A stretch of 64,000 bases of DNA from a virus. The DNA is taken from positions 24,240 through 88,239 of the IMG/VR virus record IMGVR_UViG_3300035670_000111; one strand, 5' to 3'. The position numbers and the translations under genes are program-made. Shown in pieces: positions 24,237 through 26,012 of this stretch (position 1 is its first letter; each line of letters begins with the position of its first letter). A model generated the notes under the pieces. It worked only from the letters and a program-made list of their open reading frames with translations. It had not been told where the DNA came from and ran no database searches.

Positions 24237-26012
24237 CTATATTGTCGCCAAGAAATTGTCTACGGTAGATCCTTGACTTCCTGTGGAAGGCGCCTTAATT
24301 ATACCCACAGAAGTTCCCTTGGTGGGGGAAGTTGGGGTATGGCTTAGATCAGCCCCAAGTTGCGATCCGCCAAGGTTTGATCCAGAATAGGCCTTTGCCG
24401 TTATTACGTTACCTACAGTAGTTACGTATACAGAGCCGACTGTAGTAAAGCCAGAGTTATTGCTAGATATCTGTAAAGAAGCGGCCTCGCTTACTACTTC
24501 AGACACAGAGCTGGCTATTACTAGGGACGATACATAGGTAGTTACGCTCCTAGTGCCGGTGTAGCAAGAATAAGTTGTGACGCTTCTAGTGCTGGTGTAG
24601 CAAGAATAATTAGTGGTGTACGCGGTATAGCAAGAGTAATTTGTGGGCTGGTTTACTTGCTGTGTATAGCAAGAGTAGACTGTTCTATTTCTAGTCGAAG
24701 TATAACAAGAATAACTTACCGGATTAGTTACGGTACGTGTAGAGGTATAGCAAGAATAGGTAGTAGGGGTTGTAGTAGTACTATTACTGGTGTAGCAAGA
24801 ATAAGTGGTTGGCGTAGCTGGGTTATAGCAAGAGTAGCTAGATAGCTCTTGTCCAGGGCTGCAATAGTAACAAGCAGTATAGGTGTTAATACACTCTCCG
24901 GAAATACCTTGACAGCAGTCATATCCAGCTATGCGCTGCTCATAGGTTTTAGTAATTGATGTTGCCGAATTTGAATAAGATCTAGCAGATCCTGGATTAG
25001 TAGTGACGCCAGAACAGCAGCTTCCTGATGGAGGGTTACTAGTACTTGTTACTTGACCTTGATTGCAGACTGTGGTGGTTCCACCTCCAGAACTAGTGAC
25101 GCCAGAACAACAGCTTCCTGAGGGAGGGTTACTAGAACCACTAACCTGTCCTTGATCGCAGACTGTAGAGGTTCCACCACCGCTTGTTATAACGCCGGAG
25201 CAGCAGTTAGTTCCAGAACAGCTTGAGTTTGAGCACCCAGTTAGGCCCTGATCGCAAACACTAACAGTTCCACTAGAAACTCCTGAGCAGCAGCTTCCAG
25301 AGGGCGGATTACTATAAGAATCTACGTATCCTCCGGTACATGCAGTTCCACCTCCGGAAGTAGTTACTCCAGAACAGCAGCTTCCAGAAGGAGGGTTGTT
25401 TGTGTTGGTGACCTGACTTTGGTTACAGGTTTGAGAGCTAGTTATGTCAGAGCAGCAATTTCCAGCAGGAGGACTATAGGTGTTAGTTGCCTGACTCTGA
25501 TCGCATACTGAAGTGCTTCCAGTAGTTACTCCAGAACAGCAATTGCCAGCAGGAGGGTTTGAGGTATTGGTAACTTGACTCTGATCACAAAAAGTTTGAG
25601 TGCTTGAAGTATACCTAGGATAAGCAGCCCACCAAGATCCAGCGGAGCTTATCCAGAAAGAAACGCCAGTTCCACCAGTGGTATCTGTTTGTATCTTTAC
25701 ATCAGTATTTCCAAGGTTAGCCGAAGCTATTGGATATGTGCTAGCCGCATCATCTGCAATAGCTGTGTTAGAACCACTGATACGCCAGTTTCCGCGTAGA
25801 GCTGTCCACACCTGACCTGAGTCAGCTGTTCCTAATCCATTTACAGTAGAAGTTCTATTAAACGCATCTTGTATTTTGGATGCAAACCATTGTTTCCATT
25901 GTCCACCCACTTTTACGAAGGCGCCAGTAGCGGTTTTCCATTGACCGCTTACTTTTACAGAAAGACCGCTAGCAGTCCTCCAGACGCCTCCTACTTTGGA
26001 TGAACCCGGCAT
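24237..26012 (-). CDS. Cys-rich repeat virion/fibre protein
   Basis: N-terminal VKVGGQW repeats; 7x C..NPP.G.CC and 7x YSCYT repeats inserted in a beta-sandwich-like frame. Confidence 0.85.
   Translation of the reverse strand: MPGSSKVGGVWRTASGLSVKVSGQWKTATGAFVKVGGQWKQWFASKIQDAFNRTSTVNGLGTADSGQVWTALRGNWRISGSNTAIADDAASTYPIASANLGNTDVKIQTDTTGGTGVSFWISSAGSWWAAYPRYTSSTQTFCDQSQVTNTSNPPAGNCCSGVTTGSTSVCDQSQATNTYSPPAGNCCSDITSSQTCNQSQVTNTNNPPSGSCCSGVTTSGGGTACTGGYVDSYSNPPSGSCCSGVSSGTVSVCDQGLTGCSNSSCSGTNCCSGVITSGGGTSTVCDQGQVSGSSNPPSGSCCSGVTSSGGGTTTVCNQGQVTSTSNPPSGSCCSGVTTNPGSARSYSNSATSITKTYEQRIAGYDCCQGISGECINTYTACYYCSPGQELSSYSCYNPATPTTYSCYTSNSTTTTPTTYSCYTSTRTVTNPVSYSCYTSTRNRTVYSCYTQQVNQPTNYSCYTAYTTNYSCYTSTRSVTTYSCYTGTRSVTTYVSSLVIASSVSEVVSEAASLQISSNNSGFTTVGSVYVTTVGNVITAKAYSGSNLGGSQLGADLSHTPTSPTKGTSVGIIKAPSTGSQGSTVDNFLATI

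Follow-up and report, generated by a model that had tools for sequence, protein, structure and literature searches.

A tail-fibre-module protein of an uncultured myovirus with a predicted ConA-like sandwich and a proposed nested, cysteine-laddered hairpin stalk

In the present work, we analyzed a 64,000-nt window of viral DNA (positions 24,240 to 88,239 of the IMG/VR virus record IMGVR_UViG_3300035670_000111), in which one gene codes for an unusual cysteine-rich protein, hereafter P0001. Our results indicate that P0001 is likely to be a receptor-binding-type tail protein, in which a ConA-like sandwich carries a nested, Cys-laddered hairpin stalk with a knob at its end. According to the proposed arrangement, the chain would leave one hairpin of the sandwich, run outward through seven N-side modules, form a 72-residue knob with six Cys, and then return through seven YSCYT segments that lie antiparallel to the N-side linkers. 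Every one of the seven rungs would bring three Cys of the N side (C1...C2C3) together with one Cys of the returning arm, and each structural module would consist of two sequence-distant pieces nested around the tip. With a fully extended arm, the knob would stand as far as about 25 nm from the lectin body, and this fast-evolving part probably contacts the host surface.

A script count showed that P0001 has 36 Cys, all located in residues 142-483 (nt 24564-25589 of the window), and that the other 249 residues are Cys-free. The N-side modules begin at C142, C170, C196, C225, C253, C285, and C316, and each has the form C-x15-CC, with module 5 (C-x6-C-x4-C-x4-CC) carrying two extra Cys (C260 and C265) and being 1 residue longer. 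The linkers from each CC doublet to the next Cys measure 10, 8, 11, 10, 13, and 13 residues. The Cys of the tip are C366, C367, C374, C381, C384, and C395, the last of which sits in an eighth YSCY, reading YSCYN. The YSCYT motifs start at residues 404, 419, 434, 446, 459, 469, and 481, with their Cys at 406, 421, 436, 448, 461, 471, and 483, and their periods (15, 15, 12, 13, 10, and 12) equal the N-side linker series reversed, plus 2, in six of six cases. The six periods can be placed in 180 distinct orders (6!/(2!2!)), of which just one mirrors the N-side series; the parallel order does not match. The stalk is of low complexity, being composed of 37% Ser+Thr, 10.5% Cys, and 8.5% V/I/L/M/F/W; there is no His in residues 142-483, and no HxH motif was found anywhere in P0001. 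A stalk without a hydrophobic core should depend on covalent cross-links. A sequence-only reading of the same DNA had reported seven N-side repeats, a six-Cys tip, and seven YSCYT repeats with mirrored spacing at 24540-25600. The stalk lies inside this interval and the mirrored spacing was reproduced exactly in all six cases. The repeat inventory also stood, with the corrections that module 2 has SPP in place of NPP and that the additional YSCYN had gone unmentioned.

Relatives of P0001 were collected by searching 5.8 billion proteins, which gave 106 relatives, and by running HMMER exhaustively over 1.84 billion cluster representatives, which gave 365. All relatives found are metagenomic and unnamed. 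Most of the 365 representatives, which are proteins of 250-820 residues, match P0001 in two stretches, aa ~1-140 and ~480-591, and conserved N- and C-terminal halves around a hypervariable Cys-rich insert at one fixed position are thus a trait that P0001 shares with its family. For scoring the mirror rule, an N-side linker of length L was paired with a C-side Cys-Cys gap of L+1, from the outside inward. Within the close subfamily, the rule is kept in twelve proteins with the series 10,11,13,13,13, and also in four proteins with the series 10,11,13,13, which have one rung fewer in each arm. It was further observed in relatives with the series 10,8,11,12, with 10,12, and with 11,11,11,11, and homologs with 4, 5, or 6 rungs obey it. 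In a second module type, C-x4-C-x11-C-x-C, encoded by fibre genes that stand beside a DUF6171 gene, the N- and C-side modules number 2+2, 3+3, and 4+4, and the linkers are again mirrored (e.g., 10,7,6,6 vs. 9,7,5,5). Because the rule is found in relatives carrying different series, it is not a matter of chance.

A palindrome test on single proteins was weak, because the gaps in many ladders are nearly constant, and a pooled test was used instead. Among 119 representatives at no more than 50% identity, mirrored Cys gaps matched within one residue in 334 of 881 cases, compared with 218±11 after shuffling (z 10.5), and gaps compared in parallel order matched in 222, which is the chance level. Motif-based repeat counts on the N and C sides were correlated (Spearman 0.83), a noisy measure taken over phylogenetically non-independent proteins. 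Between the DNA of the two arms there were no inverted repeats beyond 14-15-nt chance matches, and the mirror pattern is therefore a constraint at the protein level and not a relic of palindromic duplication. One candidate exception, P0003, was rejected. This protein is without exactly N modules 1-2 (54 aa) and keeps all C repeats, and its junction falls between the similar modules 1 and 3. P0243, from the same 90%-identity cluster, is 100% identical to it save for the 54-aa gap and obeys the rule in six of six cases; P0243 was found on eight contigs and P0003 on one. P0003 is therefore a metagenome assembly collapse or a rare natural deletion variant.

The register of pairing between the arms was examined by covariation within the stalk, in 24 distinct architectures that each had three or more matched rungs. 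The N-side loop class (x15, x13, x12, or multi-Cys) was compared with the two residues before the C-side Cys. At the mirror position the two shared 0.534 bits of mutual information, compared with 0.372±0.051 in within-protein shuffles, and none of 1000 shuffles reached the observed value. No signal above chance was obtained with pairings shifted by one or two rungs in either direction or with the parallel order (z about -0.5), and the shifted controls retain the sequence relatedness of the set. For example, 13-residue N loops accompany YACY, and multi-Cys loops at rungs 1-2 accompany TRSC and GSC, not YSCY. In addition, GG in the N linker, a feature of longer linkers, pairs with Pro in the C repeat (106 concordant and 11 discordant distinct pairs). 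These patterns strongly support a nested topology in which N module i would pair with C-side Cys 8-i. The antiparallel, out-and-back course that the sequence-only reading had proposed is consistent with a mirror rule that holds across differing series and rung numbers and with N-loop covariation seen at the mirror rung alone. Its expectation that homologs would have as many N as C repeats agrees with the paired rung numbers, whether one fewer on both arms or 2+2, 3+3, and 4+4.

The two ends of P0001 form the body from which this stalk would project. With a 150-sequence alignment, the AlphaFold2 model had a predicted local distance difference test score (pLDDT) of 80-98 for aa 1-150 and 480-591, in which the chain enters and leaves the insert by long strands at 126-149 and 480-503; with a 22-sequence alignment, the mean pLDDT was 39. 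When the model was compared with 48,161 PDB representatives by VIA-align, both halves of P0001 aligned as one ConA-like sandwich. The best match was the carbohydrate-binding module (CBM) CBM66 (4b1m_A; Z 17.4, root-mean-square deviation 2.5, 153 residues, model 52..591). Other matches were the galactocerebrosidase lectin domain (Z 16.0), the receptor-binding domain of mycobacteriophage TM4 gp23 (9n6a; Z 14.8), the Douge baseplate protein (8zdo; Z 14.3), and the CBM2 of phage J-1 Dit (5ly8; Z 12.3). The top matches are ConA-like lectins, CBMs, and glucanases, as are the majority of the 50 listed, and the model is a two-sheet jelly-roll sandwich of the kind that defines the ConA-like fold (~150-200 residues). 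Foldseek gave weak lectin matches in the PDB (E >= 0.025), and six matches at E <= 0.001 were obtained in BFVD, all of them uncharacterised proteins of uncultured Caudovirales. No sequence family was found for P0001 in Pfam, in NCBIfam, or by phmmer against the PDB, and the ESM Atlas held no named look-alike for the whole protein or for the stalk alone. According to the model, a single ConA-like lectin/CBM sandwich is predicted to be formed jointly by the termini of P0001, similar to the receptor-binding domains of actinophages. The earlier suggestion that the stalk is inserted into a beta-sandwich built from both termini is supported by the high pLDDT of the two halves and by the match to CBM66.

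Several observations weigh against this reading of P0001. The stalk had a pLDDT below 50 at aa 158-474 in both AlphaFold2 runs, and the rung contacts are deduced from covariation. The homologs are mutually related, so the numbers of concordant proteins exceed the numbers of independent events, which the shifted-pairing controls address in part. L084, L089, and P0145 contain 8-11 self-contained 4-Cys modules in tandem that have no mirrored counterpart, so that the nested design does not extend to the whole family. As virion assembly takes place in a reducing cytoplasm, disulfides would need late or assisted formation, and a Cys4 metal site accounts just as well for the 3+1 subtype when this is considered alone. 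Finally, a tblastn search of the fibre against 50,697 cultured-phage records gave no match, to which the low-complexity filter may contribute.

The tandem modules just mentioned are of the type C-x6-C-x6-C-x5-C followed by 10-13 residues. They were seen in L084 (664-3162) and also in L089, P0145, and P0224, and reach up to 52 Cys in 820 aa without a mirrored returning arm.

The chemistry of the rungs was assessed from Cys counts. Six of the seven rungs in P0001 have 3+1 Cys, rung 5 has 5+1, and the tip has 6. The Cys number is even in 124 of 138 independent relatives (binomial p 3e-23); 15 odd-count proteins were found, 14 of them within the 138, and at least nine have a lone Cys more than 45 residues from the insert. 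Counts that are multiples of four were not enriched in the same set (63 vs. 75). Many relatives have one Cys per arm per rung (e.g., gaps 11x6, then 17, then 11x6), which suits one disulfide per rung and not a Cys4 site. These counts favour disulfides over Cys4 metal sites. Because vicinal CC disulfides are rare, the CC doublet should branch to two partners, and each rung most likely holds two disulfides, one of which would close the 15-residue N-side loop and the other staple the CC doublet to the returning arm. The 3+1 Cys per module that had been read from the sequence is consistent with our counts, and of the two options then left side by side, Cys parity in the family favours disulfides. 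In an alternative with the same nested hairpin, the rungs would be Cys4 sites for Zn or Fe, with three N-side and one C-side Cys as ligands, and the stalk could then fold in the reducing cytoplasm. Exactly four Cys in six of the seven rungs would suit such sites, phage proteins do fold in the cytoplasm, the conserved neighbour DUF6171 resembles a small metal-binding Cys protein, and the out-and-back needle of T4 gp37 is held by metal ions (PMC6957217). These points are set against family Cys counts that are even without being enriched in multiples of four, the many relatives with one Cys per arm per rung, in which no intrachain Cys4 site is possible, the 5+1 Cys of rung 5 and the six of the tip, and a stalk free of His. 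It is also uncommon for both Cys of an adjacent CC to ligate one ion. We therefore consider metal rungs improbable.

Two further alternatives concern the fold of the stalk as a whole. In one, the stalk would be a trimeric needle of the T4 gp37 type, in which three out-and-back chains form a six-stranded rod with some Cys links between chains. Most phage fibres and receptor-binding proteins are trimeric, gp37 demonstrates that an out-and-back needle with periodic cross-links exists, and the mirror rule is equally compatible with a trimer. However, the best structural matches of the body are ConA-like CBM and lectin domains, which are often monomeric modules, neither an HxH motif nor a stalk His is present, and an even number of Cys per chain needs no inter-chain links. 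A trimeric needle thus seems unlikely, if less so than metal rungs. In the other alternative, the two repeat blocks would fold independently, as solenoids or as a flexible, maybe glycosylated Ser/Thr linker, and their mirrored lengths would be a coincidence or a relic of inverted duplication. The Ser/Thr content and low complexity of the stalk, the glycosyltransferase gene 1.1 kb upstream in the fibre module, and the failure of AlphaFold2 to fold this region could all be taken in this sense. However, independent blocks do not account for a mirror rule kept across many series and module types, for covariation specific to the mirror rung with the parallel order at chance, or for the lack of inter-arm inverted DNA repeats beyond chance matches, and we regard them as very improbable. 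A nested hairpin stalk with disulfide rungs is the reading that we retain.

The tip is the most divergent part of the protein. Compared with close homologs, the sandwich was 70-85% identical, the arms 40-70%, and the tip 15-30%, rising to 58% for the closest relative, P0002. This gradient is in line with the variable tip of the sequence-only reading. Differing tips are found on one stalk series (P0004/P0007 vs. P0005/P0009/P0018), and in other relatives the N domain is 78% identical and the insert entirely different. These comparisons are compatible with an exchange of cassettes around the tip, which would then be the surface that determines specificity. P0001 is probably a receptor-binding tail protein of the virion. 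As the modules would be two-piece and nested, the gain or loss of a rung would require matched changes in both arms or a swap of an inner cassette including the tip. At the DNA level, modules 6-7 are 85% similar over 93 bp and the remaining modules 61-72%. In contigs from four other runs, no repeat-number variants were found, and point differences alone were seen; only contigs were covered, from which rare variants would escape. The idea of a programmable stalk length thus survives in part: length differences between relatives are indeed paired, and this is an evolutionary pattern, but switching is at odds with the DNA divergence of the modules and with the lack of repeat-number joints in the contigs.

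The gene directly downstream of the fibre gene codes for a DUF6171 protein (PF19668; 30.7 bits vs. a gathering cut-off of 27). The protein has six conserved Cys in the arrangement CxxC...CxxCxC...CP, and the motif PWDLFN...CxxC...CxxCxC is present in all linked DUF6171 loci. A DUF6171 gene lies downstream on the same strand in 12 of the 12 fibre loci with downstream DNA. Reciprocally, 70 of 80 DUF6171 loci in IMG/VR have an open reading frame of the fibre family just upstream, which corresponds to 70 of the 71 informative loci, and nine of the ten loci without an upstream fibre have less than 700 nt of upstream DNA. The one true exception is L088 (DUF6171 at 4001-4234), where 4 kb of upstream DNA was available and no gene of the fibre family was detectable in it. 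A fusion of fibre and DUF6171 in P0023 was rejected as evidence, being weak: it merely reflects a lost stop codon between adjacent in-frame genes. No relevant literature on DUF6171 was found. Judging from this synteny, DUF6171 is probably a fibre-specific assembly factor that aids the folding or the oxidation of the stalk. The next gene after DUF6171 (23769-23993, minus strand) codes for a 74-aa Cys-free protein with no family match. Its homologs adjoin the fibre/DUF6171 pair in L003-L006 and L013/14, with the gene order sometimes swapped.

The features of the fibre gene and its neighbour are listed in Table 1. The first 44 residues are a probable docking region, and the PHROG matches at aa 5-47 were weak and to families of unknown function.

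Table 1. Layout of the P0001 gene and the adjoining DUF6171 gene (positions in the window).
Feature	Position	Strand	Remarks
Whole fibre gene, P0001	24237..26012	-	591 aa, tail-fibre-module protein; stop codon included
aa 1-44, three short beta-hairpin repeats (GxWK type)	25881..26012	-	AlphaFold2 strands E4-44, pLDDT 79-92
aa 45-141, N-terminal half of predicted ConA-like lectin/CBM beta-sandwich	25590..25880	-	pLDDT 91-98; VIA alignments over model residues ~45..591
aa 142-333, outgoing arm, seven C-x15-CC modules	25014..25589	-	Cys count by script; DNA direct-repeat families D1/D2
aa 334-405, tip (knob), six Cys	24798..25013	-	Script count and identity gradient; most variable part
aa 406-483, returning arm, seven YSCYT repeats, one Cys each	24564..24797	-	Mirror rule and rung-specific covariation
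aa 484-591, C-terminal half of predicted ConA-like beta-sandwich	24240..24563	-	pLDDT 86-98; VIA matches
DUF6171 gene, 80 aa	23986..24228	-	Pfam PF19668; directly downstream of fibre gene

The P0001 gene is single copy in the 88-kb virus record, which is roughly 90% complete. It is surrounded by genes coding for a collagen-like fibre with an Mtd_N domain, small fibre-like proteins, a glycosyltransferase, a tail sheath, and an M23/lysozyme protein. The tail sheath is closest (35.7%) to those of ~112-kb Streptomyces myoviruses. The virus is an uncultured myovirus resembling actinobacterial phages, with the P0001 gene within its tail-fibre module, and its host is probably a freshwater or subsurface actinobacterium. 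Near-identical DNA is present in subsurface, "marine"-labelled, and freshwater metagenomes, of which the subsurface ones are the probable source.

Several other genes of the window, all on the minus strand, are worth mentioning. Two small genes upstream of the fibre gene, at 26012-26242 and 26242-26811, code for proteins of 76 and 189 aa. The 76-aa protein terminates in a GDIWV-type motif, which recurs close to the start of the 189-aa protein and is matched at the C-terminus of PHROG tail-fibre families. The two proteins may act as connectors for the hairpins at the N-terminus of the fibre. The glycosyltransferase of the fibre module is encoded at 27139-28212 (phrog_13126, E 9e-117); with such a gene near a Ser/Thr-rich stalk, glycosylation of the virion is conceivable. 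The gene at 28331-30475 codes for a second, distinct fibre of the module, a 714-aa protein with the Mtd_N domain and collagen triple-helix repeats. The 1016-aa protein encoded at 15023-18073 has Peptidase_M23 and SLT_3 lysozyme-like domains and is probably a tail-associated cell-wall hydrolase or a tape-measure fusion.

The host range of a phage is determined mainly by its receptor-binding proteins, and those known are trimeric fibres, spikes, or lectin-like heads. P0001 can be compared with several of the known systems. The ConA-like domains of TM4 gp23, Douge (8zdo), and J-1 Dit, together with CBM66, have the same sandwich as that predicted for aa ~45-150 and 480-591 of P0001, and the phage examples likewise belong to the tail module. 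However, they have no detectable sequence similarity to P0001, and none of them carries a 340-residue Cys-laddered insertion. The needle of T4 gp37 is an out-and-back trimer with seven His-coordinated iron sites shared between chains (PMC6957217). Similar to the course proposed for P0001, it runs out to a receptor-binding tip and back and is cross-linked regularly, with seven iron sites compared with seven Cys rungs. In contrast, the stalk of P0001 is His-free, its Cys-based links are probably intrachain, and it is inserted in a lectin fold; the two proteins have no sequence relation.

The ultralong CDR H3 (complementarity-determining region H3) of bovine antibodies consists of a two-stranded stalk that rises from a beta-sandwich and bears a hypervariable, disulfide-rich knob with an even number of Cys (PMC5994613; PMC8602281). 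The same stalk-and-knob design logic is seen in P0001. However, the fold is Ig in the antibody and ConA-like in P0001, and the CDR H3 reaches up to about 70 aa, with a short stalk that is without rung-by-rung links. Diversification is somatic in cow antibodies, whereas in the P0001 family it is evolutionary and recombinational. Rods of EGF-like, TNFR cysteine-rich, and granulin modules are also known, in which modules of ~40 residues with little hydrophobic core and 2-3 disulfides are stacked, and in granulins CC doublets are branch points. In these rods the modules are contiguous and in tandem, whereas those of P0001 would be two distant segments nested around a tip, and no Pfam family matched P0001. 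A paper on the cyanophage Pam3 establishes that virion disulfides exist in a freshwater phage, and nothing beyond that. Our search of the literature on phage disulfide ladders and cysteine-rich phage receptor-binding proteins found nothing relevant, and there was no precedent in the PDB. Phage receptor-binding proteins are already known as a kind; the Cys-laddered stalk design is common among uncultured phages, but no published description of it was found. A more far-reaching proposal is that P0001 represents an undescribed architecture, an almost coreless rod of perhaps ~25 nm built of nested disulfide modules, whose length and tip would evolve only by matched changes or cassette swaps, and for which DUF6171, as a dedicated phage-encoded helper, would fold or oxidise a 36-Cys adhesin in the reducing cytoplasm. 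This proposal is possible, and we put it forward tentatively.

Taken together, P0001 belongs to an entirely uncultured family of 365 clusters at 50% identity, the variable end of which appears to be a Cys-stapled stalk with a swappable knob, set in a lectin fold. The bookkeeping of length between two distant segments of one gene is a rare case in which a three-dimensional topology can be read from the covariation of repeat lengths. If confirmed, the protein would be a natural stalk-and-knob display scaffold analogous to the ultralong antibodies of cows. It would also provide a test case in which AlphaFold2 did not succeed, and the first functional lead for DUF6171.

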